Source: an uncultured Cytophagia bacterium
Lineage (GTDB): Bacteria; Zhuqueibacterota; Zhuqueibacteria; Oceanimicrobiales; Oceanimicrobiaceae
Reading direction: 5' to 3'
NCBI GenBank assembly: GCA_964539665.1
Contig: CAZIKB010000003.1
Span: 60,062 to 124,061, forward strand
Length of the DNA: 64,000 bases
The notes under the pieces were generated by a model. It did no database searches, was not told the origin of the DNA, and was given only the letters and a program-made list of their open reading frames with translations. The translations under genes were made by a program, and so were the position numbers. Within the stretch, counting starts at the first letter, position 1, and each line of letters opens with the position of its first letter. Positions 29,629 to 63,401 of this stretch are shown here, in pieces.

Positions 29629-30785
29629 CCTGTGCAAATCAATCGATTTACATGTTAGGGGTCGCTCAAAAATATAGTTGCTTTCTCGGATTCAAATATC
29701 GCGATAGTAAAATTTCTAATTACAAAAATGCTAAGTGCATAGAGCCGAGGGCAAAGCCGCAAGTTTCACTCTGCGCCACGCGAAAGGTAATGTAATTGCG
29801 TTCAACATGATATTACAATTTATCTACATCACATACGGAATAATGCCGCTGGCTCTTCAACTGTACAGGATCATTTAGTTATATGATGCTAATCTTATAA
29901 ACTTTCCATTTGTTGTAATTACTAAGCTTACTGTTGAGGCTGTCAAAAAAGTTTTCGTTTTCAGCTAACTTCATGCTGAATCCCGAAGGTTTTGAAGTAA
30001 ATTGGGCACTGTTTCAAGCCTTTTGTTGCATTTAAAAGTTGAATTTAGATATCGAATCAAACCTTCGGGAGGTTAGGTTGACGCCAATGCGAAGTGAATT
30101 CAGGAAAGCATATTGATAATTAGTGACTTAGGTGTCTTTCTGATCCGCTCATGATGAAGCCAAATTAATTTATCAACAATCTCGTTAGGCGTATATTGTT
30201 AGTTGACCAATATGTTTTATTCTAAATATTCAACTGCTGCGAACTTAAAGCTAATTTGGCGCAGCATTTGCAACAGTGCTGGTGATTTATTTTGCATTCG
30301 CTTGTAACCTTACTTCATTGTATGCTTTTTAAAAGTTACTTTATTTTTGACCGGTATTATGAAACACATCCTGAACCAGTCGATTCGGTTATTTAAGTTG
30401 TTAATAGTTGAATTTATAAAGTTTAGGATAATACTACAGAGTGTACCTGTGAATTAAAGATATACTATATTTATTGATAGTAAATAATTTTGAAATGCAA
30501 TAAATAATAAGTATTATACAGCATATTATGAGTAAATTGCTCAATATACAACACATGTACATTATTGAAACACTGATCAATTGTCGGGACGTGTTTCAAA
30601 GCTAATTTATTATTAACAAGAAATAATTTATAAGGTGATTTAACACAATATTATTTAGAAAGTAACACCATTGCCGATATATTTCATGAGAAGCGTTCTG
30701 GGTCACATATAAAACAGGTAAATCCTCTACCTTTGCAGAGTGCATTATTTCCAACTGGGCTGAAGATAAAAATACAAAATTTGAA

Positions 30786-45854: not shown

Positions 45855-47513
45855 ATGAACAAAACAAATCATAGAGGAATTTTATTCTTTTTGAAGATAG
45901 GTATAATATCCGGTTTAATGTATGGCTTAATTTTAGGCTTGGTGAGATTATTAAGTCATGACGCTGTAAGAGCCTACTATTCAGCAAATTTTACAGATGT
46001 CCTGTTTTCATATACACAGGATTTTCTTAATCAAACCGTCATAATAACTTTGCTCGTATTTATTGTAATTGAAATGACTTTCTATTTTTTAAACAAATTA
46101 TTTGCAACCGCAGATAATAAGATAGTAAAATATTCAAGAATGATCGCGATTAATGGATTTTTCTTTTTATTAATTTTCTATTATTTAAATATTCAACACT
46201 GGTTTCCATCGATGTTGTCTAATAGCGCTTTATTGTACTACATAATTATTCTCGCGGGCAATGCTTTATTACTGTTATTATTCAATCGAATCAGAAACAA
46301 AATAGTTGTTCATGATTCTTTTAAATCCATTAAATTGCCAGTAATTACTGTTATCGTTTTATTATTGTTTAGCAATGTATTTAGTTATTTTCAAAAGAGT
46401 AAATTAAAAGCTGAAACACCGATAAATGTCATAATGATTGTGATTGATGCCCTGCGCGCCGGGCAGTTAGGTTGTTACGGATATGATCTGCCTACAACTC
46501 CGAACATCGATGCATTTGCTCAAGAAAGCCTTAGATTCACGAGCAGCTTTTCACCGAGCAACCATACTAAACCTTCCACAGCATCGCTTTTTACTTCGCT
46601 CTATCCTTCGCAACATAACGTTATTCTAGGAAATAGGTCAAATAATTCCGGGGAGTATTTCTCAGATGTTTTAGATGAATCATTCAAAACGATTGCAGAA
46701 TATTTGTATGAAGCAGATTATAACACGGCCGGGTTTCTAAACCAGGGTCAATTGCGTAAATATTTGGGATTTGCACAGGGATTTATCTATTATAATTCCC
46801 GGTTAGGAAGGGCGCCGCAAATTAATCGTGAATTTTTGCGTTGGCTGCCCATGAATAAACATAGAAAATTTTTTGCATACATACATTATTTGGATGTACA
46901 CGGCCCTTATGATCCGCCTGAGAAATATCGAAAAATATTTAATGTGAATGAGCTGACCAGCGAAATTCCGGAGCGTGCTAAAAATTGGCGAAAATTTAAA
47001 AAAGACTTTGAGAGCGGTGCTTTAGAATTTACGCCTGAGGACCTGGAAAATTTGAAAGCGCTTTACAATGCTGAACTTAAATCCGTTGATGATCAGCTTG
47101 GAATACTTTTTCAGGAATTGAAAAGGCAAGGAGTATATGAAAACAGTCTAATCATAATCACGGCTGACCACGGTGAGTCGTTTGTTGAACATGGCGAAAT
47201 AGATCATGGCTCCACTTTGTTCGATGAAGTTTTACGCGTACCTTTAATAATCCATTATCCTAACCAGGAAAAAACCGGCGTAGTAGATGCAAATGTGCAA
47301 ACTCTTGATTTACTGCCGACCATTTTAGATTATTTAAATATTACGCCTTCAAAAGACTTGATGGGACAAAGTATTTTAAAGTATTCAAATGGCAGCATTG
47401 AGCACGATGAATATCCTATTTTCTGTGAAAGAAATAATCTGGTCTCATTGATCTTTGGTAAAGATAAATATATTTTTGATAAAATAGCCAGACGGGGGAA
47501 CTCTATAACTTAG
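45855..47513 (+). CDS. Membrane-anchored sulfatase-family protein (third copy); the reading frame is interrupted at a GGGGG run and the ORF continues to 47691 in another frame
   Basis: It has a VIMIVIDALRAG motif, a nucleophile region NHTKPSTASLFTSLYP (Thr, no CxPxR) and an ITADHGESF motif. The annotated frame stops at 47513 after ...ARRGNSIT. The +2 frame from the G-run encodes GELYNLEIDPGERN...IEKLKSLGYIK*, ending at 47691. Confidence 0.55.
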   Translation: MNKTNHRGILFFLKIGIISGLMYGLILGLVRLLSHDAVRAYYSANFTDVLFSYTQDFLNQTVIITLLVFIVIEMTFYFLNKLFATADNKIVKYSRMIAINGFFFLLIFYYLNIQHWFPSMLSNSALLYYIIILAGNALLLLLFNRIRNKIVVHDSFKSIKLPVITVIVLLLFSNVFSYFQKSKLKAETPINVIMIVIDALRAGQLGCYGYDLPTTPNIDAFAQESLRFTSSFSPSNHTKPSTASLFTSLYPSQHNVILGNRSNNSGEYFSDVLDESFKTIAEYLYEADYNTAGFLNQGQLRKYLGFAQGFIYYNSRLGRAPQINREFLRWLPMNKHRKFFAYIHYLDVHGPYDPPEKYRKIFNVNELTSEIPERAKNWRKFKKDFESGALEFTPEDLENLKALYNAELKSVDDQLGILFQELKRQGVYENSLIIITADHGESFVEHGEIDHGSTLFDEVLRVPLIIHYPNQEKTGVVDANVQTLDLLPTILDYLNITPSKDLMGQSILKYSNGSIEHDEYPIFCERNNLVSLIFGKDKYIFDKIARRGNSIT

Positions 47514-47833
47514 AAATAGATCCGGGAGAGCGGAATAAAATTAATTCCCGGAATAGTGAATTAGAGCAGAAAATGAAAGCTATGGTTTTAGAATGGAGTG
47601 AGGCCATGAAACTCGTTAGTAAAAAGTCAGAAGGTACTAAATTAGATAAAGAAACCATCGAAAAACTTAAAAGTCTGGGATATATCAAATAAGACTGTTG
47701 AATTAAGGTCAAGTGCCATCTAATATTCTCAGTCGGGCGAATTCCATGGTTGGAAAAACGCATTCACTTCATTATTAGCCACGTGGCAGAGTGATTCCAA
47801 ATCAACGTACACTTCAGAATAAACCTAAATGAA

Positions 47834-47962
47834 TTGTCAAATTATGATTATAAGCTGTCATTTGGTTGTCATTAAGTCATCTGTTGTCATTGATTTAATG
47901 ACCTAATGACCATGAATGACATTGTGACTGAAACAGTAGTTCAGGTATACTGTTTGTCATTG
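47834..47962. promoter_or_regulatory. Dense array of TTGTCAT(T) / AATGAC repeats (at least 8 copies in both orientations within about 130 bp) upstream of the sulfation module
   Basis: Copies were read directly: ttgtcaa 47834, ctgtcatt 47856, ttgtcatt 47866, ttgtcatt 47884, aatgacc 47898 and 47905, aatgacatt 47915 and ttgtcatt 47954. Confidence 0.4.
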
Positions 47963-48290
47963 AATATTGCAATGATAATCAGTAATCATTCCACTATAAT
48001 TGTTGCTCCCTTAATATTTTCCTCAGAAGTTAATATATCAGGCATTAAGCAAAAAATTATGAGAAGCTTTTGTTATACATTGTTTCATACTGTAACACAA
48101 AAAAATGTTGATCCGTTTTAAGACAATTATTTTTATGCCGATATTAATTTTGTAGTCGGTCTTTTTAAGTAAGTTCGTATTAATAAAGCACTAAATGTTT
48201 ATAATTTACATTGGTATAAATTTTGCTAAAGTATTGCGACTGACTTCAAAAATGTTCATTATACGTGATATTAAGACGTGAGGAAAATAT

Positions 48291-48590
48291 ATGTCGGAAC
48301 AGAACCGAAAAAGAGTAATTGGTAAGGCAATTACTTATAGAGGACTTGGCACATTAGTTACTATATCAGTAATATATATTTTCACTGGAAAATTGGCGCT
48401 TTCATTTGGTGTCGGACTTGTTGAGGTCGTTGCTAAAATGCTTTTTTATTACCTGCATGAACGACTTTGGGAGAAAATATCATGGGGTAAAGATAAACAT
48501 CCTCTTGCTGGAATCCCTGTTAAAAAGGAGCTTGAACCTGAAGACAAAGTATTGCTTGAAGAGAGATTAAAAGAGCTTGGATATTTATAA
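48291..48590 (+). CDS. DUF2061-family small membrane protein with a C-terminal ...EERLKELGYL tail
   Basis: It has the RVIGKAITYRGLGT...YYLHERLW motif (DUF2061). Length is 99 aa, with an AGGAAA RBS. Confidence 0.6.
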   Translation: MSEQNRKRVIGKAITYRGLGTLVTISVIYIFTGKLALSFGVGLVEVVAKMLFYYLHERLWEKISWGKDKHPLAGIPVKKELEPEDKVLLEERLKELGYL

Positions 48591-48611
48591 AAATCGAATT
48601 ATTGGGAGCAA

Positions 48612-50795
48612 ATGATGAATCGAAAATACTCGTTAATTACTTTACTCATTTTATTGGTATTCTTAATTATCGATGCACAGCCTGCTTTTGCATATATCGG
48701 CCCCGGCGCCGGTTTTGCATTTTTAACTTCATTTGCAATGCTATTTGCCAGTTTCTTTATGGCTTTTTTTACATTGCTAACCTGGCCTTTCCGGGTTTTT
48801 TTACGGTTTTTCAAAAGAAGAAAAGCTTTAGCCAGAGCTAAAACAGATCGGGTTGTGATTCTGGGCCTTGACGGTCTTGACCCAACTATCACAGAACGCA
48901 TGCTACAGGAAGGTAAATTACCAAATTTGAAAAAACTTAAAGAGCAAGGTTCTTACAAACATTTACAGACCACTTATCCAGCTCTCTCGCCAGTTGCCTG
49001 GTCAGCCTTTGCAACTGGAGTTAATCCTGGTCGACATAACATTTTTGATTTTCTTTCACGCAATCGATTCAACTATTTACCCGAATTATCCTCTTCAAAA
49101 GTTGGGTCTCCAAATCGAAAAATATCCCTGGGAAAATTCGAAATCCCGCTTGGCAAACCGATTGTTCGATTATTACGTCGCAGCAAAAGCTTCTGGACAA
49201 TATTGGGAGAGAACGGTATTTTCAGTCATGTACTTCGTGTACCAATCACTTTCCCACCTGAAAAATTTAACGGAGCGTTACTTTCAGCGATGTGTACTCC
49301 GGACCTCTGGGGAACGCAAGGCACTTTTTCCTACTTCACGACTGATACAACTAATAAAAAATTTAAAGAGGGAGGAGAGACTGCAGTTGTGAAATGGGTA
49401 GGCGATAGAATTGAGGGATTTATTAAAGGCCCTGAGAACTCCATTACTAAAAAGCATGAGTCGATGAAGCTCCCTTTTGAAGTAAAGATTTTGAGTGATG
49501 ACGAAATAGAACTGATAATAGAAAAAAAGAAATACAACCTAAAAAAGAAAAAATACACCGATTGGATTGAATTGAAATTTAAAGCCGGAATGGGGATCAA
49601 AGTACATGGTATTGCACGATTTTACCTGCTTGAAACCAATCCAGTTTTTAGATTGTATATGACGCCCATCAATATCGATCCGGAAAAGCCAGCGCTGCCA
49701 ATTTCTTACCCTTATTTCTATTCCGTTTATCTTTCTAAGTTATTCGGGAAATTCGCGACATTGGGTTTAGCGGAAGATACCTGGGCTTTGAACGAGGGCG
49801 TTCTTGATGAGGAAGCTTTTTTAGAGCAGGCATATCTAATTCATGAAGAACGTGAAAAACAATTTTTTCATACTTTAAGCAAAACCAGAAAAGGTTTGTG
49901 TTCAGTGGTATTTGATGCCAGTGATCGAATTCAGCACATGTTTTTCCGAACGCTTGAAGATGACCATCCTGCCAACCGAGGCAAAGAAACTGAAAAATAT
50001 AAAAATGTTATTGCCGATATGTATGAGCAAATGGATGACCTCGTTGGTAGAACCATGGCTAAAATAAATAAAGATGAGGTTTTTATTGTGCTCTCTGATC
50101 ATGGTTTTAAATCATTCAGACGCGGTATAAACCTGAATTCCTGGTTAAAAGCTAATGGTTATCTAAAGCTGAAAGACGGTAGGGAAGAGAGTGGGGAATT
50201 TTTTCAGGGTGTTGATTGGGAAAATACAAAAGCCTATGCATTCGGACTGACGGGTATTTACATCAATGTTAAAGGCCGGGAAAAGAACGGCATTGTCGCA
50301 CCAGGTGAAGAATTAAAAACACTCAAAGATGAGTTGATTGCTAAACTTTCCGGGATGTTAGATCCTGAAACCGGGGAAGTTGCCATTATCGAGATGTTTG
50401 ATAATAGTGAAATTTACAAGGGACCTTATACTAACAATGGACCCGACTTGATTAGTGGCTACAATAGCGGCTATCGAATTTCATGGAATGGCGCAACCGG
50501 GAATGTCAATGAGCAAATTTTTGAAGACAACGTTAAAGCCTGGAGCGGCGATCATTGTGTTGACCCGAGGCTTGTCCCCGGGGTGATTTTTAGCAACCAA
50601 AAAATTATGGCCGCTAAACCAGGTTTGATGGATATAGCGCCAACAGTTCTTGAATTATTTGGAATAACTAAACCAGGCTATATGGAAGGCCAGGATATCT
50701 TAAGTAGTGAACCAGAAGAGACAGCAAAAGATGAAGATATTCCCACCATAGTGCCAACAGTAAAAAAAACGGAGGTGGCTTCGGTCAATGAATAA
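48612..50795 (+). CDS. Membrane-anchored alkaline-phosphatase-superfamily protein (type I phosphodiesterase/nucleotide pyrophosphatase-like)
   Basis: It has two N-terminal hydrophobic segments followed by a KRRK cluster. Motifs include LGLDGLDP, a nucleophile region ALSPVAWSAFATGVNPGRHNIFDF and a later LSDHGF. Length is 727 aa. Confidence 0.6.
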   Translation: MMNRKYSLITLLILLVFLIIDAQPAFAYIGPGAGFAFLTSFAMLFASFFMAFFTLLTWPFRVFLRFFKRRKALARAKTDRVVILGLDGLDPTITERMLQEGKLPNLKKLKEQGSYKHLQTTYPALSPVAWSAFATGVNPGRHNIFDFLSRNRFNYLPELSSSKVGSPNRKISLGKFEIPLGKPIVRLLRRSKSFWTILGENGIFSHVLRVPITFPPEKFNGALLSAMCTPDLWGTQGTFSYFTTDTTNKKFKEGGETAVVKWVGDRIEGFIKGPENSITKKHESMKLPFEVKILSDDEIELIIEKKKYNLKKKKYTDWIELKFKAGMGIKVHGIARFYLLETNPVFRLYMTPINIDPEKPALPISYPYFYSVYLSKLFGKFATLGLAEDTWALNEGVLDEEAFLEQAYLIHEEREKQFFHTLSKTRKGLCSVVFDASDRIQHMFFRTLEDDHPANRGKETEKYKNVIADMYEQMDDLVGRTMAKINKDEVFIVLSDHGFKSFRRGINLNSWLKANGYLKLKDGREESGEFFQGVDWENTKAYAFGLTGIYINVKGREKNGIVAPGEELKTLKDELIAKLSGMLDPETGEVAIIEMFDNSEIYKGPYTNNGPDLISGYNSGYRISWNGATGNVNEQIFEDNVKAWSGDHCVDPRLVPGVIFSNQKIMAAKPGLMDIAPTVLELFGITKPGYMEGQDILSSEPEETAKDEDIPTIVPTVKKTEVASVNE

Positions 50796-52782
50796 GATTA
50801 AAGTTGTATTTGGTATAATAGCTATCCTATTTTTAGTGTCATTGATTAGCTTATCTGTTTTCTGGGGATGCAAAAAAAGCAATGCAAGCGCAATTGAAAA
50901 AAAAGTGATTGTTATTGGCTTTGATGGTATGGATCCAAGACTTTTGTCAAAATATATGAGTGAGGATCGACTTCCAAATTTTACTAAATTAGCTGAAACG
51001 GGCGATTATAAACCGCTTGGTACAAGTATTCCTCCACAGAGTCCGGTTGCCTGGTCAAATTTCATAACAGGTATGAATCCTGGCGGACATGGCATATTTG
51101 ATTTCCTTCATCGTGATCCAAATACAATGCTGCCACTCTCATCTACATCAAAAACGGAAGAGTCTGGCAAATCAATAAAGATCGGCAAATGGGTAATTCC
51201 ATTATCGGGAGGGAAAGTAGTGAATCTACGTAAAGGGCAGGCCTTCTGGGAGAAACTTGAAGATTCAGGCGTCCCAACGACAATTTTCAAAATACCATCA
51301 AATTTTCCACCGGTAAAAACAGACGGCAAAGCTTTGAGTGGTATGGGTACTCCTGATTTACAGGGTACATTTGGTACGTTTTCTTATTATACGGACGACC
51401 CTCCGCCAAATCGCGACGATATTTCCGGCGGTGTGGTTTATCCCGTCAAAATACTAAACAATGAAGTAGAAGCTCAATTAACAGGTCCAGCAAATACATT
51501 TTTAGAAGATGCCCCGAATGCTACTATTCCGTTTAAAGTGTGGAGTGATCCCGAAAATCCTGTAGTAAAAATATCAGTGCAGGATCACCAGATTTTGTTG
51601 AAAGAGAAAGAGTGGAGTGACTGGATTCAGGTGAAATTTGATATTATTCCTGTTCTGGAATCTGTAACTGGCATCTGTAGATTCTATCTGAAAGAAGTAC
51701 GACCGCATTTCAAATTATATGTTACTCCGATAAACATTGATCCTTCAAATCCAGCATTACCCATTTCAACACCTGATGATTATGCAAAAGAACTGTACGA
51801 CCACTGCGGATACTTTTATACGCAAGGCATGCCTGAGGATACAAAAGCGTTGTCCTGGAATGTATTTGATCATGATGATTTCCTGAAACAAGGCTTGAAT
51901 GTACTTGATGAACGATTACGTCTTTTCAATTATGTGTTTGACACGTTTGAGCAAGGTCTGCTGTTTTTTTATTTTTCAACTACCGATTTAAATGGACACA
52001 TGTATTATAATATGATTGATCCTGAACATCCGGGGTATGATGCAAAACAAGCGCAAAAATATGGTGACGTTATGAGTAAGTTATACGAAAGCGCTGATAA
52101 AGCAGTTGGCCACGTACTCGAGCGAATAGATGAAAACACTACACTTATAGTCATGTCAGATCATGGATTTGCACCGTTCAGACGCGCTGTGCATTTAAAT
52201 ACCTGGCTAAAAAATGAAGGATACATTACTTTAATTGATGAATCAAAGCAAGCCGAAAATGAATACTTTCAGAATGTCAATTGGAGCCGAACGCAAGCTT
52301 ATGGATTAGGTTTCAATGGGCTTTATGTAAATTTAAGAGGTCGGGAATCTTATGGTTTTGTTGCTCGACGGGAAAAGAAAGCCCTTTTGAATGAAATTTC
52401 CGAGAAGCTTTTAGCTCTACGCGATCCCAAAGATAATACAAGAATTATCGAACGGGTTTATCTGGCTGAAGAAATTTATTCTGAGCAATATTTAGAAAAT
52501 GCACCTGATCTCATTGTCGGTTACAACCGTGGATACAGAGCTTCATGGGAAACGACAATTGGTAACTTTCCACTGGAATGGATTTCGGACAATATGGATC
52601 CCTGGAGCGGTGATCATTGTATGGCAGCAGAGCTTGTACCTGGTGTAATTTTATCAAATAAAAAAATAGACGCTCAAAATCCTAAACTTTATGATATGGC
52701 CCCTACAATTCTTAACGAATTTAACGTTGAAAAGAGTGACGACATGGTGGGGCAAGTGATATTCAACAACATAGTAAATTAA
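50788..52782 (+). CDS. Alkaline-phosphatase-superfamily PDE/NPP-like protein (paralog 2)
   Basis: It has IGFDGMDP, PQSPVAWSNFITGMNPGGHGIFDF and MSDHGF motifs, with an N-terminal TM or lipobox-like FWGC. Length is 664 aa, and it overlaps the upstream gene by 8 nt. Confidence 0.6.
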   Translation: MNKIKVVFGIIAILFLVSLISLSVFWGCKKSNASAIEKKVIVIGFDGMDPRLLSKYMSEDRLPNFTKLAETGDYKPLGTSIPPQSPVAWSNFITGMNPGGHGIFDFLHRDPNTMLPLSSTSKTEESGKSIKIGKWVIPLSGGKVVNLRKGQAFWEKLEDSGVPTTIFKIPSNFPPVKTDGKALSGMGTPDLQGTFGTFSYYTDDPPPNRDDISGGVVYPVKILNNEVEAQLTGPANTFLEDAPNATIPFKVWSDPENPVVKISVQDHQILLKEKEWSDWIQVKFDIIPVLESVTGICRFYLKEVRPHFKLYVTPINIDPSNPALPISTPDDYAKELYDHCGYFYTQGMPEDTKALSWNVFDHDDFLKQGLNVLDERLRLFNYVFDTFEQGLLFFYFSTTDLNGHMYYNMIDPEHPGYDAKQAQKYGDVMSKLYESADKAVGHVLERIDENTTLIVMSDHGFAPFRRAVHLNTWLKNEGYITLIDESKQAENEYFQNVNWSRTQAYGLGFNGLYVNLRGRESYGFVARREKKALLNEISEKLLALRDPKDNTRIIERVYLAEEIYSEQYLENAPDLIVGYNRGYRASWETTIGNFPLEWISDNMDPWSGDHCMAAELVPGVILSNKKIDAQNPKLYDMAPTILNEFNVEKSDDMVGQVIFNNIVN

Positions 52783-52795
52783 AAAGGAGTTTTAT

Positions 52796-52987
52796 ATGTT
52801 AGGTCCCAAAATTAAATTAGAAAAAGAATTATATGATCGAATTAAAAAATTTTCTGAAATCGCTGGTTATTCTTCTGTTGAAGAATTTGTAACTCATGTG
52901 CTGGAAAAAGAACTGTCGACAATAGATGACTCTGAATCAGAAGAAGAAGTGAAAAAACGATTACAGGGATTGGGATATTTGTCTTAA
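52796..52987 (+). CDS. Small protein (63 aa) with a ribbon-helix-helix-like N-terminus, an acidic linker and a C-terminal ...KKRLQGLGYLS tail
   Basis: It has a strong AGGAG RBS. The N-terminal sequence KIKLEKELYDRIKKFSEIAGYSSVEEFVTHVLEKEL resembles CopG/Arc RHH proteins. Confidence 0.45.
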   Translation: MLGPKIKLEKELYDRIKKFSEIAGYSSVEEFVTHVLEKELSTIDDSESEEEVKKRLQGLGYLS

Positions 52988-53038
52988 AATATTTCATAAT
53001 TCCAATAATACCATAAATCCACGGAGTTAGTATAAAAT

Positions 53039-53869
53039 ATGTTGAATATATTGAACTATTTTTTTAATATAATTTTTAATGTTATATTTTTTCCATTTAA
53101 AAATATGGATCCGATCTGGGGCATGTTAGTGGTTTCGTTTGTTACAGGGATTGTGATGTTATTTGTTTTTAAGGCAACTTCCGATCAGATTGGTATTAAA
53201 AAAGCAAAAAATTTGGTAAAGGGCCATTTCCTGGCCATTCGACTCTATCGGGACGATATCACACTTATGTTTGTTACCATGAAAAATATTATCATGAGTA
53301 ACCTGCTTTACATGAAAAAATCTTTTCGCCCCATGCTTTTTCTAATAATTCCTGTGGGTGTCATTTTAATTCACCTTGGCACCAGGTATGAATTCCGGCC
53401 ATTCAAAGTTGGGGAGACAATTATTGTTTCCATACGTCTGGATGACAAAATTCAGGATCTGAATCTCAACAATGTTGTTTTTGAACTTCCAGATGGTTTA
53501 ACCTCCGACATGCCGCCCGTTCGAATTCAGCAATTACGGGAAATTAACTGGCGTATCAAAGCTGAAAAGCCAGGCATCTATGATCTGATTTTTAAATACA
53601 ACAACAGTAATGTAACAAAGCGACTTGAAGTCAGAGATTCATTGATACCGCTTTCGAAAGAAATTGCCCAGAACAGTTTATCTGTGACTCTAATGAATCC
53701 CGGGGAATCGAGTTTGCCCGGATCTTCATTCGCTTCTCACATTGCAATCGGTTACCCCAAAAGAGATTTCAAATTCTTAGGATTCAGTTTCCATTGGTTA
53801 ATTGCTTTCTTTGTTTTTAGTCTAATTGCGGCATTTTCATTTAAAGGCGTGCTTGGCGTTGAAGTTTAG
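53039..53869 (+). CDS. Hypothetical membrane protein
   Basis: The 276 aa protein has 3-4 predicted TM segments at the N- and C-termini and a central soluble region. Confidence 0.35.
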   Translation: MLNILNYFFNIIFNVIFFPFKNMDPIWGMLVVSFVTGIVMLFVFKATSDQIGIKKAKNLVKGHFLAIRLYRDDITLMFVTMKNIIMSNLLYMKKSFRPMLFLIIPVGVILIHLGTRYEFRPFKVGETIIVSIRLDDKIQDLNLNNVVFELPDGLTSDMPPVRIQQLREINWRIKAEKPGIYDLIFKYNNSNVTKRLEVRDSLIPLSKEIAQNSLSVTLMNPGESSLPGSSFASHIAIGYPKRDFKFLGFSFHWLIAFFVFSLIAAFSFKGVLGVEV

Positions 53870-53938
53870 GAGATAATTATTTTAAAAAAACAATTTGCAT
53901 GTGATAGAAATCTTTTTTAATATGCCGGTTAAAAAGCG

Positions 53939-54775
53939 ATGAGTTATAAATTTTTATCTACTAAAACAAGTCAGGAACATGATTTAGACCAGTGGCAAAA
54001 TCGTAGCCTCGAAGGTGAAATAAAAAGTTTTGAAGGCCGTACATTAGTTCGTATTTTTAATAAATATTTAAACGGAAAAGAAGCGAAAATCCTTGAAGGA
54101 GGTTGCGGATTTGGTGCTTGGTGTGAGTGGTTCCAAAAACAGGGTTATCAAATATTAGGTATTGAATACGATAATAATATAGTAAAAAGAGCCAAAAAAT
54201 ATAAGCCAGATGTAGCCGTTGAATTAGGCGATATCACCGAAATAAAGTACCCGTCCGATAGCTTTGACGCTTATGTATCATTGGGAGTGATTGAACATTT
54301 TGAACATGGTCCAGAGTCTGCCCTGAGAGAAGCCCATCGAATTCTTAAACCAGATGGCATAGCCTTTGTAACTACGCCTTATTTAACAGTAATCCGAAGG
54401 TTTGTTGCTCATCCGGTTCGCAGCTTGTATTTTTTAATTCGAGAGTTTCGTGGAAAATCAAATTATTTTTGGGAATATCGGTTTACAAAAAATGAATTAC
54501 GTTCTTTTCTTGAGAATACTGGCTTTGAAATTATACATGCGGATATCGACGATTATGAGCATAGGATTAAGAATCGCCACATAGGTCTGTGGGCGGATTG
54601 GTTTTTTTTAAGAAGAAAAAATGGTGCAATCTGGGAGTTAAATGGTTTAGGAAAATTTGTGCTCAGAGTTGTCAATCTTTTTCCTGATTCCTGGTACTGC
54701 TCGGGTTTGCATCTGGTTGCAAGGGCAAAAAAGAACGATATCACTGAAAATAGTGAAATTACTAAATCCAAATAA
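53939..54775 (+). CDS. Class I SAM-dependent methyltransferase
   Basis: It has [11 protein letters not shown] (motif I), ILGIEYD and LKPDGIAFV motifs. Length is 278 aa. Confidence 0.7.
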
Positions 54776-54798
54776 TTATAAAATATGAAAGGAATTAC

Positions 54799-57435
54799 AT
54801 GGAATTAATCGCACCTCACGGTGGCAAACTTGTTGATCAGGTTTTACGTGGCGAAGAACGTGAAGCAGCTTTGAACAAAGCTAAGCATCTAAAAAAAATT
54901 GCAATCAACGCAACAGCAATTTCTGATGTAGAACTCATTGCAGTTGGTGCATTCAGCCCATTAACGGGATTTATGAAACAGGCTGATTATGAAAATGTAG
55001 TTACGAATATACGTTTAGCAAATGGCGTGGTCTGGTCGATACCAATAACTTTGTCAGTTACCAGTGAAATTGCTGATGAAGTTAAAATTGACGAAGAAAT
55101 TGTATTAACCAATGATGCCGGATTGCAATTAGCATTATTAAAAGTTGAGGAAAAGTTTACTTACGATAAAACCCGGGAAGCGGAATTTGTATATAAAACA
55201 ACCGAAGAAGCCCATCCTGGCGTTGCCCGGCTTTACAAGCAGGATGATGTGTTATTAGGTGGTGAGATTAGGCTAATCAATCGGGTGCCGGATCAACCAT
55301 TTCCGGATTTTCGACACGATCCTGTTCAGAGTCGGCGTATGTTTGCCAGTCGCGGTTGGAAAAAAATTGTAGGATTTCAAACTCGCAATCCAATACATCG
55401 TGCGCATGAATACATACAGAAATGTGCATTGGAAATTGTCGATGGTTTATTTTTACATCCATTAGTTGGGGAGACTAAAAAGGATGATATTCCCGCGGAT
55501 ATTCGCATGCAAAGTTATGAGAGCCTGCTGCGAGATTATTATCCGCCAAACCGTACACTTTTAGGGGTATATCCGGCCGCCATGCGCTATGCCGGTCCAA
55601 GAGAGGCTATTTTTCATGCGATTGCGCGAAAGAATTATGGCTGCAGCCATTTTATAGTCGGTCGAGACCATGCCGGGGTTGGTAATTATTATGGAACGTA
55701 TGATGCTCAAAAAATATTCGATGATTTCAAAAAGGAAGAAATAGATATCACACCTTTATTTTTTGATCATACATTTTATTGCAAAAAATGCGGTGCTATT
55801 GTTTCTGACAAAACCTGTCCGCATGATCAATCTGAGCGTTTGATATTAAGTGGCACTCAGGTTCGTGAAATGCTCACTCGCGGGGAAGCGCCACCACCAG
55901 AATTAACCCGCCCGGAAGTGGCGAGTATACTGATCGAAGGTTATCGCAAAGAAGGCAAATCAGTTCAACCAGAAAAAAAACCGGAAGCCAAAAGAGCACC
56001 AGCTAAATCCGAACCAAAGGCAGCGGTTGCAAGGGCGTCTAAAAATGGCAAGCGGAAAGTATTTGTCATCGGCCTTGATTGTGCCACACCCGAATTGATT
56101 TTTGACCAGTACAAATCGGAGCTTCCAAACTTTCGGAAATTAATGGAAAGCGGTCTTTACGGAGAATTAGAAAGCAGCATTCCGCCAATTACCGTTCCAG
56201 CCTGGTCGTCCATGATGAGCAGTAAAGATCCGGGGCAGTTGGGCTTTTACGACTTTCGTAATCGTGCAGATTACTCCTATGAAAGCATGTATATTGCCTC
56301 ATCCAGGTCAGTAAAAACGGATCGGGTCTGGGATATTCTCTCTCGTTCAGGAAAACAGGTATCGGTTGTGGGAGTGCCTCAAACCTATCCTATCCAGCCC
56401 GTTAAAGGAAACATGATTTCTTGCTTTCTGACTCCTTCTACTGAAAGCCAGTACACCTATCCTGAAGAACTTAAATCTGAAATCCAGGAGTTGGTGGGAG
56501 ACTACATGATTGATGTGCCTAATTTTAGAACCGAGAACAAGGATTTGCTTTTGCGGCAAATTTATGAAATGACCGAAAAGCGTTTTCGGCTTGTTCGCTA
56601 TCTAATGCGGAAAAAACCGTGGGACTTTTTTATGTTTGTCGAAATGGGTACAGATCGCATTCATCACGGATTCTGGAAGTATATGGATACCGGCCATAAA
56701 AAATATGAACCCGGTAATCCTTATGAAAACTCAATAAAGGAATATTATAAATATCTGGATCGGGAAATCGGCGAGGTACTTGATAACCTTGACGACGATA
56801 CATCCGTTTTGGTGGTTTCAGACCATGGCGCCAAAAAAATGGATGGCGGTATATGCATTAATGAATGGCTCATTGAAAATGGCTATCTTATTTTAAAAGA
56901 GAAACCGGCTTCACTTATGCCACTGGAGAAAGCAGAAATAGACTGGCCCAAAACGAAAGCATGGGGCGCTGGCGGATATTTTGGCCGAATTTTTCTTAAT
57001 GTCCGCGGCCGCGAACCTGAAGGCGCGGTTGCACCTGAAGAGTATGAAACCATTCGGAATGAATTGATTCATAAGCTGGAAAATATAAAGGACGAAAAAG
57101 GCCAGCCATTAACTACCAGAGTTATAAAGCCAAATGAGGTTTATAAGGAAGTAAACAATATTCCTCCGGATTTAATGGTCTATTTTGGTGATTTGAATTG
57201 GCGGTCGGTTGGCAGTGTCGGATTAAATCGAATACACACTTTTGATAAAGAGCTGGGACCTGATGATGCTAACCATTCTCAGCACGGTATTTTTGTCATG
57301 CATGATCCACAAAATCCTGCAAATGGCAAGAGAATTCACGGCATGCAATTGGTTGATGTTGCGCCAACTATTTTAGATTTATTTGGTGACGAAATTCCAA
57401 ATGATATGATCGGTAAAGTTATCAGGAACAAATAA
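54799..57435 (+). CDS. sat: Fusion protein: N-terminal sulfate adenylyltransferase (ATP sulfurylase) and C-terminal alkaline-phosphatase-superfamily PDE/NPP-like domain
   Basis: Residues 1-390 carry the [13 protein letters not shown] and [15 protein letters not shown]-sulfurylase signatures. A Lys/Pro/Ala-rich linker follows. Residues from about 420 have [17 protein letters not shown] and VSDHGAKK motifs homologous to the ORFs at 48612, 50788 and 58183. Total length is 878 aa. Confidence 0.75.
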
Positions 57436-57451
57436 GGCGTTAGAGGAAACA

Positions 57452-57492
57452 CGCTGAGGATATTTGCCACACACTTCCAGGGTGTGTGGCAA
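57452..57492 (+). terminator. Perfect 13-bp stem hairpin (ATTTGCCACACAC / GTGTGTGGCAAAT, 7-nt loop) followed by an AT-rich TTTTAAATT tract; intrinsic terminator or attenuator between the sat fusion and cysC
   Basis: The inverted repeat was read directly at 57452-57484. It starts 17 nt after the stop at 57435. Confidence 0.5.
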
Positions 57493-57559
57493 ATCCAATT
57501 TTAAATTAAAATCAATTAATTAGTTGTAATGATATAAATTTTATGGAGGTTTCAATTTT

Positions 57560-58183
57560 ATGAAGACATCTAAAAAAGCATGTACAATTTGGTTCACGGG
57601 TTTACCTTCCTCTGGAAAATCTACTTTGGCGGAGATGCTGGAAAAGGAGTTAAAAAACCGCGGAGAAAGGGTCGAAATTTTAGATGGCGATGTAGTCCGT
57701 ACGAATTTAAGCAAAGGCTTGACCTTTAGTAAGGAAGATCGGGACATCAATATCCGGAGAATAGGATTTGTTTGTCATTTGTTGACAAGAAATGGTGTGT
57801 TCGCAATTTCTGCAGCAATATCTCCTTATAGAAATATACGAGATGAAAACCGTGCACTCATAGGCAACTTTGTCGAGGTTTTTGTTGATTGTCCACTGGA
57901 TGAATGTATTAAAAGAGATGTAAAAGGTCTTTATAAAAAAGCATTGGCCGGCGAAATAAAGGAATTTACCGGCGTTTCTGATCCTTATGAAGAACCTCTC
58001 AAACCTGAAATTGTGATTGACGCCCACGGAGAAGAACCCAAAGATAGCCTTCAAAAAATACTGGCGAGATTAGTAGAATTAGGTTACTTATCCAATAACG
58101 GTCTTGATACATCTGACAAAGCATATTCTGATGAAGAAGAAGAGGTAGTGAGAAAGCGGCTGAGTGATCTGGGCTATATTTAA
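57560..58183 (+). CDS. cysC: Adenylylsulfate (APS) kinase with a roughly 50-aa C-terminal extension carrying two LGY[IL] tail motifs
   Basis: It has the P-loop [14 protein letters not shown] and the APS-kinase core. The extension reads ...[40 protein letters not shown]. Confidence 0.85.
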
Positions 58184-59529
58184 TGTTAAATATTTTTAAG
58201 AAAAATAAGGGATCAAAAGTATTTGTTCTGTCTATCGACGGTGTTCCCTTTTCATTTATGCAGGAAAACATAGAAAAGGGTCATTTTCCTAACTTCAAAC
58301 GTTTTTTGAATATGGGTGATTTTAAAAGGATGAATTCAGTGCAACCGGTGATATCATCGGTTGCCTGGTCCTCTTTTATGACAGGCAAGAATCCGGCTAA
58401 GCATAATATTTATGGATTTGTGGATCAAATGCCGGGTTCAAATAATGTATATATTCCTACTTCGCTCAACATGACCAGTAAAACCATTTGGGATATCATG
58501 AGTGAGGCTGGGAAAAAAGTGTTTGTGATGAATGTTCCTGTAACCTATCCACCACGCGCGGTAAATGGAATTATGATTGGCTGTTTCCTTTGCACTCAAA
58601 TTGAGAAAATAGCTTCCCCGCCTGCTATTTCTGCTGAATTAAAAAATATGGGCTATAAGATTGATGCAGACGCCTGGATCGCCCGTGAAAATTTAGACAA
58701 ATTCCTGGAGGAAGTAAATACTACCCTGGAAAAGCGAACCGAGGCTATGTTTCATTTTTTGGCAAAGGAAGATTGGGATTATTTTCACACCCACATCATG
58801 GAAACAGACCGGATAAATCACTTTTTATGGGAGCACATGGAACTCGATGAGCCGAAATATGCTAAAGCTTTTTTCCAATTTTATAAAAGGTTGGATGATA
58901 TTTTAGGTGAAGTTGAACAAAAAATCGGCGAAGACGCGGAATTTATAGTTCTGTCTGATCACGGTTTTTGTACTATTAAGAAAGAAATCTATCTCAATAA
59001 TTATTTGGAAGAAGCCGGTATATTGAAATTTAATAACTCTCAGCCGGAAAGTATCGCGGACATGCATGAAGATTCCACGGCCTACAGCTTGATTCCAGGC
59101 AGGGTATTTGTGAATCTAAATGGGCGCGAGCCGAACGGTTCGATATCGCCGGGGAATTATGAAAAGACCCGGGAAAAACTCACTGAGACGCTTCTTAATT
59201 TAAAGGAAAAAGACACCGGCGAATTTATTATCAAGGAAGTTATCAGGCGCGAAAATATCTACGAAGGTCAAAATATTGGCTCCGCAGCGGACTTAATTGC
59301 TGTTCCACATGATGGTTATGACTTGAAAGGGAACGTGAATAAAGAAGTGTTTGGTGAAAAGGGGGCGCTGGTCGGAATGCATACATTCGAAGATTCACTT
59401 TTATTTGTTCGAAATAAATCTTTGTTAAAACAGAATAATCAATTTTGGATCGGAGATTTGGCTCCAACTATTTTAAATATGATGAATATACCCATCCCAA
59501 ACGATATGGATGGAGTGGCATTAGTTTGA
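58183..59529 (+). CDS. Alkaline-phosphatase-superfamily PDE/NPP-like protein (soluble paralog)
   Basis: Its ATG overlaps the cysC stop by 1 nt. It has LSIDGVP, PVISSVAWSSFMTGKNPAKHNIYGF and LSDHGF motifs. Length is 448 aa. Confidence 0.6.
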   Translation: MLNIFKKNKGSKVFVLSIDGVPFSFMQENIEKGHFPNFKRFLNMGDFKRMNSVQPVISSVAWSSFMTGKNPAKHNIYGFVDQMPGSNNVYIPTSLNMTSKTIWDIMSEAGKKVFVMNVPVTYPPRAVNGIMIGCFLCTQIEKIASPPAISAELKNMGYKIDADAWIARENLDKFLEEVNTTLEKRTEAMFHFLAKEDWDYFHTHIMETDRINHFLWEHMELDEPKYAKAFFQFYKRLDDILGEVEQKIGEDAEFIVLSDHGFCTIKKEIYLNNYLEEAGILKFNNSQPESIADMHEDSTAYSLIPGRVFVNLNGREPNGSISPGNYEKTREKLTETLLNLKEKDTGEFIIKEVIRRENIYEGQNIGSAADLIAVPHDGYDLKGNVNKEVFGEKGALVGMHTFEDSLLFVRNKSLLKQNNQFWIGDLAPTILNMMNIPIPNDMDGVALV

Positions 59530-59536
59530 GTAATCT

Positions 59537-60682
59537 TTGCAGGAAAAAATGACCCAGAAATCACAAATCAATGTTCTTCAGGTTGTAGAGGGACTCAATT
59601 TAGGCGGGGCTGAAATTAAGCTTTTGGAGCTCATCGCCAACATGGATCGCAGCAGATTTAGAACGGTTGTGTGTAGTCTTGGAATGGGTGAAAGAATTAA
59701 AGAAAAAGTAACAGAATTAGATGTTAAATTTGTTAGTCTCGCGAGGAAAAGACGATTTGATCCAATGTTGATATGGAAAGTGGCCAAATTGATTCGTCAG
59801 GAAAATATTGATGTCGTGATGACTACGCTTTTTTATGCTGATGTTGTTGGCGCTTTTGCCCGGCTCTTCAGCCCGACTAAAGCTGTATTCTCCTGGGAAA
59901 CCATATCTGCTCCGGAATGGCTGCTAAAACACAGGCTTTTTGCTTATCGCTTTGCCATGCGATATTGCGATAATATCATTTCAGTTTCACAAGCAACGGC
60001 AAATTGGCTGGTCGAAAAACGCGGTGTCTCAAATGATAAAATAATAGTCATACCGTACGGCGTTAACCTTGATTTGTATCGACAGGGAAAAAATCATGAG
60101 TTGAAACAGAGTTTAGGAATTCATCCTGATACATTTGTAGCTGGGGTAGTGGCGCGACTCCATCCTCAGAAAGGGCACAAATATTTAATTGAGGCGGCTA
60201 AAACAATTGTCCAAAAACATGCAAATATTAAATTTGTATTTGCTGGCGATGGAGAATTAAGAAGTGAATTAGAAAGCCTGGTGCAATCCGCGAATCTTCA
60301 GGATTATTTTCTGTTCTTAGGCTTCAGAAATGATGTGAAAGAACTATTAGGGACGTTTGATGCTTTTGTGCTTCCCTCTTTGTACGAGGGGCTGCCAAAT
60401 GTTATTTTGGAAGCAATGGCAACCGGCCTTCCTGTTGTTGCGACTGCAGTTGATGGCACAGTCGAATTAATTGAAGATGGTGAAACCGGGTTTCTTGTAC
60501 CGCCGAAAGATCCACAGGCTTTAGTGGAAAAAATCTATCAACTAATTCAAGACAAAGACCGAATCTGTAGATTTGGCAAACAAGGGCGTAAACGAGTTGA
60601 GTTAAAATATTCTCTACAGATGCAGGTGAGCAATTTCCAGAATCTATATGAAAAATATGTTTTTAATGGAATTAAAAAATAA
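59537..60682 (+). CDS. GT4 glycosyltransferase
   Basis: It has a GGAE N-motif and the C-domain sequence LPSLYEGLPNVILEAMATGLPVVAT with E-x7-E. Length is 381 aa. Confidence 0.75.
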   Translation: MQEKMTQKSQINVLQVVEGLNLGGAEIKLLELIANMDRSRFRTVVCSLGMGERIKEKVTELDVKFVSLARKRRFDPMLIWKVAKLIRQENIDVVMTTLFYADVVGAFARLFSPTKAVFSWETISAPEWLLKHRLFAYRFAMRYCDNIISVSQATANWLVEKRGVSNDKIIVIPYGVNLDLYRQGKNHELKQSLGIHPDTFVAGVVARLHPQKGHKYLIEAAKTIVQKHANIKFVFAGDGELRSELESLVQSANLQDYFLFLGFRNDVKELLGTFDAFVLPSLYEGLPNVILEAMATGLPVVATAVDGTVELIEDGETGFLVPPKDPQALVEKIYQLIQDKDRICRFGKQGRKRVELKYSLQMQVSNFQNLYEKYVFNGIKK

Positions 60683-60720
60683 ACTGTTACGAATATAAAT
60701 AAAAAATTGATGTATTAAAT

Positions 60721-60752
60721 GGGCGCGATATTTATGGCGCCTTTTTTATTTC
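60721..60752 (+). terminator. Rho-independent terminator candidate (GGCGC stem, 10-nt loop, GCGCC, then TTTTTTATTT)
   Basis: A GC-rich hairpin plus T-tract lies about 40 nt after the stop at 60682, and a 590-bp intergenic gap follows. Confidence 0.5.
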
Positions 60753-61275
60753 ATAGAAATTTATCAAATTAATGCTAACCTGAAAGATATCACAAGCCAC
60801 GCGATTGTTTTATTTGGAAGAAAGGCTATCGCAATCGAGACGATTGTGTGGCTACAACCGAGCGCTTCCTGAATGCCTGCATGAAACTGACCTTTTTACA
60901 AAAGGTTAGTTTCTTTTTTAACTAAACACACACAAACCTTTTTCAAGAAGGTCTGCGTTTCCTTATAGTAATATGTTTAACAATGAAACAATTGTACAAA
61001 ATAAATACATGGAAAATCAGAAAAATTAATTCATTTGATAAAATCATATTTTAAAATTTAGATAATACTTTATAAATTAAGGAGTTGAAAATAGCACAAA
61101 ATAATGCCACTCTGGCATAAATATTGCCATTTTTCTTTGGAATAAAAATAAATTCAATATAAGGTAGTTAGTTCCTGTTTTTTAAAAATTGAATTAAGTT
61201 AGTGCTTTAATTTCCGATACTTAACATATCACAAGCATTTAAAAAGTGTTGCTATTTTGGGTTGGATAAGATACT

Positions 61276-62013
61276 ATGAAAAACGGATTTAAGGTAGCGA
61301 TTTTAGTTCCGGCATTGAACGAAGCGGATACTATCGAAAATGTTATAAAAGGGATAAAAAAAAACAATCCTGACTTTGACGTTGTTGTAATTGATGATGG
61401 CTCAACCGATAAAACAGCCGAACTGGCTGAACGTGCAGGAGCTGCCGTTCTTTCGCTTACTGTAAATTTAGGTTATGGTGCAGCCCTTCAAACGGGGTAT
61501 AAATATGCATTATTGAATGGATATGATTACACTGTGCAAATTGATGGGGACGGCCAGCACGACCCTAAATATATTAATAATTTAATCGAAACGGTGCAAA
61601 ATGGCACTGATGTAGCCATTGGCTCGAGATTTCTTGATAACCTTGGTAATTACAATCATCCAACCCTTCGCCAGATTGGAATGATGTTTTTCCGATTTTT
61701 AATTTATCTGTTTATCAATCAAAAAATATCAGATCCAACTTCAGGCTTTCAAGCCTTGAATAAAAATGTTATTTCCTATTTCGCGAAGAGCAAACAGTAT
61801 CCTTCGGATTTTCCGGATGCAGATATCATTATCCTGCTGCATTATGCCGGATTTCGAATTTCTGAGGTTCCGGTTGTCATGTTTAGAAACGAAACTGGCA
61901 AATCTATGCATAGTGGATTCAAGCCAATCTATTATATTATTAAAATGCTATTATCCATTTATGCAGTTCTTTTTGGCAACCAAAAACTTACATATACTAA
62001 AAATGCCACTTAA
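61276..62013 (+). CDS. GT2 polyprenyl-phosphate sugar synthase (GtrB/DPM1-like)
   Basis: It has VAILVPALNE, VIDDGSTDKT and QIDGDGQHDP motifs. Length is 245 aa. Confidence 0.75.
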   Translation: MKNGFKVAILVPALNEADTIENVIKGIKKNNPDFDVVVIDDGSTDKTAELAERAGAAVLSLTVNLGYGAALQTGYKYALLNGYDYTVQIDGDGQHDPKYINNLIETVQNGTDVAIGSRFLDNLGNYNHPTLRQIGMMFFRFLIYLFINQKISDPTSGFQALNKNVISYFAKSKQYPSDFPDADIIILLHYAGFRISEVPVVMFRNETGKSMHSGFKPIYYIIKMLLSIYAVLFGNQKLTYTKNAT

Positions 62014-62389: not shown

Positions 62390-63401
62390 TAAAGAGCAAA
62401 TTTGGGATAATTTTGCATTAAATCATCCTGATGCAACCATGTATCATTTGTTTGGGTGGAAAAATGTCTTTGAATCTGTATTTGGATATAAGCCATTTTA
62501 CCTGATGGCTGTGAACTCAATGGATGAGCCTGAGGGTATCCTCCCCATGTTTAGCATGATGGACATGTTTCGTCGCAAATATTTAATTTCTAATCCTTTT
62601 TCCAATTTTGCAGGCATCTGCGCTAATTGCCGGGAAGCGGAGGAAAGTCTGTTAAATAAAGCAATCGAAATAGCTGCAAATTCAGGGGCACGTTACGTGG
62701 AGCTGAGGCAGTTGAATAAAAAGATATCGTCTGACCTGCCGACTAAAGAATCCTTTGTAACATTAATGCTAAACCTCCCTTCAAACTCAGAATTTGTTTG
62801 GGATTCCATTTCTTCAAGAAATAGAAATAAAATTAGAAAAGCTGAAAAAAATGGTTTGGAAGTGGATTTTGGAATGCAATTTCTGAATCAATTTTATGCC
62901 ATTTACGCAAGAAATATGAAGTTCTTAGGCACGCCTGTTTTTCCCTTGCAAATGTTTGAAGCGGTTGCGAAAATTTTCGCTGATCGGGTAGAACTGCTTG
63001 TTTTAAAAAAGAATAGCGAGCCAGTTTCCGGAATGTTTCTATTTAAGTTCAAAAAAGTTATATCCGAACCCTGGGTGGCTTCTTTAAGAATATTAAATAA
63101 AATTTATGTTAATAATTATTTGTATTGGCAGGCAATTAAATATGCGTGTAACCAGGAGTTTATTGTATTTGATTTTGGGCGTTCAACGGTTGATACTGGG
63201 ACTTATGATTTTAAAAAACAATGGGGCGCTGAACCTGTTCCGCTGCAATATCAATATTATTTAAACAAGGCCAGGGAAATTCCTGTAGTAGATGCCATTA
63301 ATAATAAGTATCAAAAGATAATTGATATTTGGAAGAAATTACCGCTTGGACTTACAAATTTTGTGGGACCCAAAGTGGTACAATATTTGCCTGAACTTTG
63401 A
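62361..63401 (+). CDS. FemAB-family/GNAT-fold acyl or aminoacyl transferase (as found in exosortase/PEP-CTERM EPS loci)
   Basis: The 346 aa protein has a two-lobed architecture with YHLFGW and ARNMKFLGTPVFP motifs. Confidence 0.45.
   Translation: MMRVLTVTHDKEQIWDNFALNHPDATMYHLFGWKNVFESVFGYKPFYLMAVNSMDEPEGILPMFSMMDMFRRKYLISNPFSNFAGICANCREAEESLLNKAIEIAANSGARYVELRQLNKKISSDLPTKESFVTLMLNLPSNSEFVWDSISSRNRNKIRKAEKNGLEVDFGMQFLNQFYAIYARNMKFLGTPVFPLQMFEAVAKIFADRVELLVLKKNSEPVSGMFLFKFKKVISEPWVASLRILNKIYVNNYLYWQAIKYACNQEFIVFDFGRSTVDTGTYDFKKQWGAEPVPLQYQYYLNKAREIPVVDAINNKYQKIIDIWKKLPLGLTNFVGPKVVQYLPEL

Follow-up and report, generated by a model that had tools for sequence, protein, structure and literature searches.

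The 64-kb stretch of DNA analysed here, referred to below as the window, is a long run of polysaccharide synthesis and modification genes that all point in one direction and encode glycosyltransferases, flippases, membrane-anchored sulfatase-family and phosphodiesterase-family proteins, a carbamoyltransferase, an ATP-sulfurylase fusion and an APS kinase. Inside this run, a gap (47693-48290) separates a sulfatase-family gene from a series composed of DUF2061, phosphodiesterase-family genes, a methyltransferase, the ATP-sulfurylase fusion, the APS kinase and a glycosyltransferase. One phosphodiesterase-family gene, coding for a 727-aa protein (P727, 48612-50795), has relatives about 70-80% identical at the protein level in MAGs, and those with close relatives are mostly labelled Caldithrix, Calditrichaceae or candidate division KSB1, which indicates a Calditrichota-like source. 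The features of the gap and its surroundings are collected in Table 1.

The original prediction described the gene before the gap as frameshifted, and comparison with a homologue from L003 bears this out: the tblastn alignment of the homologue passes from frame 2 to frame 1, with the change at 47494-47498, and the last ~65 codons are read in another frame, up to the TAA at 47690-47692. As the shift falls in a G5 homopolymer, it may reflect either a true pseudogene or a homopolymer assembly or sequencing error. It was also correctly anticipated that the gap holds no credible ORF, since it contains just one frame of 71 aa, which starts inside the mobile element described below and is not conserved in L025, the closest relative found (DUF2061 86% identical). 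No real homologue of this ORF was found among 1.84 billion representative proteins and it has no Pfam match, its protein matches being the ORF itself and long repetitive proteins that match weakly and in several stretches; a hidden gene was rejected on these grounds. In relatives, a heparinase-like gene of ~860 aa precedes the promoter block discussed below, and tblastn finds no trace of it in the window, so the gap is not a remnant of that gene.

Some observations concern the sulfation genes themselves. The fusion is an 878-aa protein (54799-57435) in which PUA_2 and ATP-sulfurylase domains are joined to an alkaline-phosphatase-superfamily (Phosphodiest) domain, and it is also present in L027. 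Because no Pfam sulfotransferase domain was found among the 40 ORFs scanned, though sulfate-activation genes are present, Phosphodiest/Sulfatase-family proteins may carry out sulfate transfer. DUF2061 genes lie repeatedly between sulfate-activation or sulfatase/phosphodiesterase-family genes (L027 5164-7744; L026 4390-8235), and in L027 the DUF2061 gene comes after the APS kinase; this recurring neighbourhood hints at a role in the sulfation pathway for DUF2061, a small membrane protein.

Table 1. Positions of the features in and around the gap, numbered from the first letter of the window
Feature	Position	Strand	Remarks
Sulfatase-family (PF00884) gene	45855-47692	+	Pfam match; frameshifted at G-run 47494-47498
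Spacer	47693-47786	.	without match in relatives, in the loci and collections searched
MITE-like non-autonomous element	47787-47997	+	body ~47790-47993, ~205 bp
CAG and CTAT flanking the element	47787-47789; 47994-47997		possible remnants of target duplication
Left terminal inverted repeat	47790-47805	+	AGTGATTCCAAATCAA; family consensus GTGATTCCTAAWTAA
Degenerate motif copies	47834; 47924		TTGTCAA; GTGAC
Core palindromic array	47856-47929	.	four forward (T)GTCATT, then four reverse AATGAC/GTGAC
Exact GTCAT cores	47857, 47868, 47876, 47886	+	
Exact GTCAT cores	47898, 47906, 47916	-	
Exact GTCAT core	47956	+	32 bp on from the fourth reverse copy
71-aa ORF	47906-48121	+	gene in public annotations; not a credible gene
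Right terminal inverted repeat, degenerate	47975-47993	-	ATAATCAGTAATC+ATTCCA; family TTAWTTAGGAATC+N6
17-bp dyad TGTTTCA-TAC-TGTAACA	48081-48097	.	candidate upstream activator (enhancer-binding protein) site
Conserved box TGATCCGTTTTAAGACA	48109-48125	+	near-invariant columns, 15-sequence alignment
Conserved box TGCCGATATTAATTTT (TGCCGATAWTA box)	48136-48151	+	near-invariant columns, 15-sequence alignment
Predicted sigma-54-type promoter	48212-48227	+	TGGTATAAATTTTGCT; -24 GG 48213-48214, -12 GC 48225-48226
Conserved box GCGACTGAC	48236-48244	+	at predicted transcription start; overlaps TTGCGA
Ribosome-binding site GAGGA	48280-48284	+	before DUF2061 gene
DUF2061 gene	48291-48590	+	Pfam match; first gene of co-directional run ending at 60682
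GGGCGCG...CGCC-T6 hairpin	~60720-60755		after run ending at 60682; read directly from sequence
Terminator-like site	60883-60913		after run ending at 60682
Second dyad TGTTTAACAATGAAACA	60974-60990	+	132 bp upstream of TGGCATAAATATTGCC
Second GG-N10-GC (-24/-12) element TGGCATAAATATTGCC	61113-61128	+	before GT2 gene at 61276

The GTCAT/ATGAC array and the element around it

The repeat array is real and non-random. Eight exact GTCAT/ATGAC cores fall within 104 bp (47857-47960) where ~0.18 would be expected from the background of 111 GTCAT in 64 kb (Poisson probability of at least eight cores, 2e-11), and no other cluster of at least five cores per 120 bp occurs in the 64-kb window. The window-wide count is at chance (111 versus 113 in shuffles) and the enrichment is therefore purely local; the suspicion that the motif might be scattered at background density applies to the overall count, but not to the cluster, which is unique in the window. 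At least eight TTGTCAT/ATGAC copies in both orientations had been predicted and are indeed present. They had been placed in the first 130 bp of the gap with a phasing of ~10 bp; instead the array starts ~140 bp into the gap and its spacing alternates between 8 and 10-12 bp, the start-to-start distances in the core being 11, 8 and 10, then 12, and then 8, 10 and 8 bp. The core is an imperfect palindrome, in which the fourth reverse copy is the degenerate GTGAC, and its predicted fold has z = -4.9 as DNA.

Copies of the same arrangement were found elsewhere. A scan of metagenome contigs with the pattern GTCAT-N3-GTCAT-N5-GTCAT-N7-ATGAC-N3-ATGAC (25 specified bases) returned 8 other contigs, the number expected by chance being estimated as far below 1. 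Three of the eight (L032=L033 and L035, the latter equal to L052) align with the window over ~215 bp, 47783-47997, and further copies were recovered by profile in L038, L053/L056 and L054/L055; the nhmmer profile matches window positions 47783-47996 with E = 5e-58, the window copy being among the three sequences from which the profile was built. Homologous copies of the element occupy four other, unrelated intergenic sites on Caldithrix/KSB1 contigs, the taxonomy (Caldithrix sp., KSB1) being taken from the protein names given by the sources. All copies are ~205-229 bp long and lack coding capacity. The well-preserved ones are bounded by GTGATTCCTAAWTAA ... TTAWTTAGGAATCAC, and the terminal inverted repeat, GATTCCTAAWTAA, is found at both ends in L032/L033 and L035; both termini are also visible in the L054 alignment. 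In the alignments the window copy has an intact left inverted repeat and a decayed right one, which also explains a Fur-box look-alike at 47970-47992.

All eight motifs keep their order and spacing in the full-length copies, as compared in four of them. Termini are the best-conserved part of typical MITEs, whereas here the centre is better kept, with a mean pairwise identity among copies of 82% in the core and 49-55% in the arms. As complementarity is not maintained in the stretches that separate the motifs, constraint seems to act on the motif and not simply on base pairing. The insertion contexts are mutually unrelated, with one copy located between convergent genes. In one copy, 43 bp of the array are missing. 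L054/L055 carry two copies separated by 1.3 kb, L033 has one copy and a variant with the same termini, and the window has a single copy in 64 kb.

Three comparisons of filled and empty sites in sister strains reveal clean insertions of ~180-215 bp with duplicated CYAR (YTAR-like) flanks. The first is a 213-bp insert in L033, flanked by CTAG ... CTAA and placed between PMT-like and GT2 genes that overlap by 8 bp in L038 and L045, where the empty site reads GAG-CCAG-AACC. The second, with the same flanks, lies between genes for a C25 peptidase and a thioredoxin in L054 and L055 (empty in L050 and L051, TTCG-CTAA-TTAT). The third occupies L052 and L053 with flanks CCAG ... CTAG, the empty site GGC-CTAG-TACCG being found both in L050 and in a paralogous segment inside L052. 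The sequences around the inserts are 87-93% identical between L033 and L038 and 90-99% between L052 and L050. Because every empty site has one CYAR tetranucleotide and every filled site two, a 3-4-bp duplication of a YTAR-type target is indicated; its length is either 3 or 4 bp, as a single base distinguishes the left from the right tetranucleotide at each filled site. The flanking duplication of the window copy is degenerate and too decayed to score.

Two other differences were noticed in these loci. L052/L053 have a Uma2-family gene that L050 lacks (L052 701-2057 versus L050 10447-10635); in L052, a ~190-bp segment from the 3' end of the RND-pump gene is duplicated so that it stands on both sides of the Uma2-family gene, and the MITE interrupts one of the duplicates. 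At one intergenic site of two sister strains (L033 5040-5250 versus L038 650-880), different inserts share the termini GATTCCTAATTAAC ... TTATTT-GAA-C: the L038 insert is a GTCATT-core element, and that of L033 has another internal hairpin, GTGTTCAGGTG...CACCTGAACAC. The inserts may belong to sub-families with common termini, or one may have replaced the other at an insertion hot spot.

The element resembles bacterial MITEs such as BrickBuilt of Porphyromonas gingivalis, a MITE with internal repeats (PMC4596501; review PMC10969869), in being ~200 bp long, non-coding and intergenic, with inverted-repeat ends and an interior built of repeats, and in occurring at multiple sites with strain-variable presence and a limited host range. 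It differs in that its interior is a palindrome of eight 6-7-bp motifs and not a tandem 23-nt minisatellite, in its conserved centre, and in a copy number that appears low in the available sequence. Insertion sequences of the IS5 group use and duplicate YTAR targets (PMC10359306); similarly, the empty sites are CTAA, CTAG or CCAG, and the filled sites lie between two such tetranucleotides. Unlike the IS5 group, the element was found without a transposase gene and its duplication may be of 3 bp. The MITE-like element of Calditrichota/KSB1 genomes would thus insert at CTAG/CTAA-like targets with duplication of 3-4 bp. As it has no coding capacity, it would be moved by a transposase encoded elsewhere, for which the YTAR-type target suggests an IS5-like enzyme; neither a transposase nor an autonomous partner element was found, the search for a partner covering viral contigs and plasmids, and the gap has no meaningful similarity to plasmids, phages or viral contigs. 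The window copy, with its decayed right end, is probably immobile. REP and REPIN sequences are inverted doublets of palindromic units of ~25-35 nt that lack target duplication and are accompanied by a RAYT gene; here target duplication is present, the units are motifs of 6-7 bp and a limited search found no RAYT gene, so this class was set aside.

What the array might do

The original prediction likened the array to a multi-site operator for a dimeric regulator, and in this reading the regulator would govern the sulfation genes by cooperative binding. Such an operator might well consist of eight short motifs in either orientation, spaced 8-12 bp apart and located ~350 bp upstream of the first gene, and the stronger conservation of the core, compared with the remainder of the element, is consistent with some form of protein binding. 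However, the array is missing from the upstream regions of all orthologous DUF2061/P727 genes examined, none of which has even four GTCAT in 120 bp (22 related loci). L003 has a matching gene order (GH39, sulfatase, sulfatase, DUF2061, P727), with just ~50 bp between sulfatase and DUF2061, and in L025 the sequence upstream of ~48079 is unrelated and part of a different gene. Furthermore, the identical layout recurs at unrelated loci, including the one between convergent genes, sister strains vary in carrying it, and the conserved regulatory block begins only at 48081. Because the array lies inside a mobile element elsewhere and is absent upstream of the orthologues, we do not regard it as the operator of this operon, a reading that is very improbable.

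More improbable still is a cluster of Pho boxes, that is, PhoB-type sites placing the phosphodiesterase-family genes under phosphate control. The E. coli Pho box has two 7-bp CTGTCAT repeats 11 bp apart, which replace the -35 element of a sigma-70 promoter. The stretch CTGTCATttggTTGTCAT (47855-47873) fits this format and the genes downstream are members of the alkaline-phosphatase superfamily, but the 11-bp spacing is confined to the first pair, the others being 8, 10 or 12 bp and half of the motifs inverted, and there is no adjacent -10 element. The array also travels in a mobile element beside unrelated genes and is absent in the orthologues, so that spacing and context are both wrong for a Pho box.

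Saprospiraceae-like contigs and another contig set (L031/L034, L029/L030/L036) contain much larger palindromes, in which some eight GTCATT units precede some eight AATGAC units. In L031 (5656-5854) and L034 (12699-12888) they lie between convergent genes, and this one locus differs in unit number between the two samples. GTCATT arrays in other taxa are not independent evidence, because they were found by searching for GTCAT. We found nothing specific on GTCATT arrays or heptamer repeats in the literature.

A secondary, co-opted role of the insert would be that of a transcribed hairpin, which stabilises RNA or insulates from sulfatase read-through, leaving the downstream genes dependent on a promoter of their own. 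The RNA fold predicted for the palindrome is strong (-36.6 kcal/mol, z = -3.1), and other copies are found at gene 3' ends and between convergent genes, where the Saprospiraceae-like arrays also lie. Nevertheless, a U-tract is absent and no terminator was called in 47400-48400, conservation concerns the motif and not the pairing between spacers, and in L033 the genes on either side of the element run in one direction and still need to be expressed, all of which makes this role unlikely. Two related candidates were rejected as well: no intrinsic terminator was called in the gap, and the sole Rfam match is a plant miRNA model with 24.8 bits against a gathering score of 65.

Arrays of short heptads are known to be bound by ribbon-helix-helix proteins, as with omega of pSM19035 and the ParR/ParG centromeres. 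The present array is similar in its many contiguous short motifs, direct and inverted, at sub-helical-turn spacing; however, those arrays adjoin plasmid partition or copy-control genes, whereas this one lies in a chromosomal element bounded by terminal inverted repeats. It is conceivable, though we doubt it, that the eight-motif GTCATT palindrome is a true multi-site module for a host protein (a regulator or a nucleoid-associated protein), spread by the MITE through Calditrichota genomes and placed near promoters such as the sigma-54 enhancer described below. Conservation of the core over the termini, and the Saprospiraceae-like palindromes, could in that case reflect a common binding protein across Bacteroidota and Calditrichota. 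As the core is the best-kept part of the MITE-like element, it most likely serves the element's own biology, and would be a binding array for the transposase or a host factor, or a hairpin needed for mobility.

The conserved block upstream of the DUF2061 gene

Similarity of the gap to its relatives is limited to ~48079-48249. When 15 upstream regions were aligned, from genomes whose proteins are only ~75% identical, GGTA and TTGC were the only invariant, ungapped runs in all 15, with the geometry GG-N10-GC, and the only other invariant position was the CC of the TGCCGAT box. The consensus of sigma-54 promoters is TGGCAC-N5-TTGCW, with a dyad upstream activator site ~100-150 bp upstream; transcription starts ~12 nt downstream of the GC and is activator-dependent by nature. 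The window element, TGGTATAAATTTTGC (48212-48226), fits TGGYAY-N5-TTGC and, compared with the consensus, has the AT-rich variant TGGTAT. Matches to GG-N10-GC are not above chance in the window alone (3 found versus 1.9 expected).

The centre of the dyad is 124 bp upstream of the -24 GG, and the pattern TGTTTCA-N3-TGNAACA is kept in 12 of the 15 aligned sequences (the window and 11 relatives). In the relatives it lies 5-15 bp past the stop codon of the heparinase-like gene that is absent from the window. Its form, TGT-N11-ACA, is one base longer than the NifA-type site, TGT-N10-ACA. The two boxes that follow it (48109-48151) are perhaps extra activator or architectural-protein sites, and the box at the predicted start is conserved as GCGACTGA. 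From the usual sigma-54 geometry, the start is placed at ~48237. In its GG-N10-GC spacing, its match to TGGYAY...TTGC and the placing of a 17-bp dyad 124-132 bp further upstream, this anatomy is like that of sigma-54/NtrC-family enhancer promoters, and we infer that 48081-48244 is an activator-dependent sigma-54 promoter for the genes at 48291-60682. Neither rpoN nor an activator gene (a Sigma54_activat domain or a GAFTGA motif) was found in the window or in any fetched locus, and a search of the literature on Caldithrix sigma-54 gave nothing specific.

It had been proposed that the genes are transcribed from a promoter formed by TTGCGA (48234-48239) and CATTAT (48257-48262). Both hexamers are present, but CATTAT lies in a variable stretch and is not conserved, and TTGCGA overlaps the conserved box just downstream of the -12 element; sigma-70-like matches in this region are at chance level (8 found versus 5.7 expected). 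We also considered that TGGTATAAATTTTGC might be a Bacteroidota-style sigma-A promoter (-7 TAnnTTTG), or that the block might be a conserved leader RNA, and we judge it improbable that either is the case. The former draws on the relationship of Calditrichota to Bacteroidota and on TA..TTTG-like letters in the element, but the spacing is TA-N3-TTTG and not N2, and the invariant GG 10 bp upstream of the GC is left unexplained. Against the latter, RNAalifold gives no conserved structure in the block and 0 covarying pairs, and Rfam gives no match. With the sigma-54-type reading preferred, the proposal that the sulfation genes are separately and conditionally controlled is plausible, although through this promoter and its upstream dyad and not through the array.

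A 23-nt inverted repeat (48014-48036 and 48268-48290, 83% complementary) surrounds the block; it has no conserved counterpart in L025. The ribosome-binding site of DUF2061 falls in the downstream arm, and the upstream arm, TTTTCCTC, precedes the predicted sigma-54 start, so that the repeat could mask the ribosome-binding site in read-through transcripts only; its significance is marginal by a rough estimate.

The dyad pattern occurs at two loci only in the window, 48081 and 60974 (0.09 expected), each of them intergenic and 124-132 bp upstream of a GG-N10-GC element. The second pair lies ahead of GT2/DUF2304 genes, after the terminator-like hairpins and before the next gene block, so that sigma-54-like anatomy is seen twice in one polysaccharide gene cluster. 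The second pair is probably under the same regulator as the first, as judged from the shared motifs, which suggests one enhancer-binding regulator for at least two units of the cluster. Some look-alikes were also recorded. The third GG-N10-GC match of the window, at 63377, lacks a dyad. A stretch of 1.16 kb (29629-30785) without an ORF of at least 90 aa contains TGAAACA...TGTTTCA half-sites (~30568-30598) and a TGCCGATAT box (30672) like the boxes of the promoter block; by eye, no GG-N10-GC was seen after that box in this stretch.

Interpretation of the gap

Homology of the copies, insertion polymorphism among sister strains and conservation of the promoter block are observed. We hold with good confidence the joint view that the array is the core of a MITE-like element and that the control region of the downstream genes is the sigma-54-type promoter block at 48081-48244. 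The element would have inserted ~85 bp upstream of the enhancer dyad, with the array as a passenger, and downstream transcription would proceed from near 48237, dependent on an activator ATPase encoded outside the window. Both the element and the promoter are of well-known kinds, in a poorly studied phylum; as far as our searches show, the MITE family is undescribed.

Under this interpretation, annotation of the array as an operator would mistake the remnant of a mobile element for a regulatory site, and the likely point of control of an operon for sulfated-exopolysaccharide modification shifts to a conserved sigma-54-type promoter and its enhancer site. The MITE family may be useful as a strain-level marker, and it may illustrate how the strongest constraint on such an element can fall on the centre and not on the ends. 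For the uncultured Calditrichota/KSB1 lineage, the promoter block offers a testable handle on how polysaccharide sulfation is switched on.
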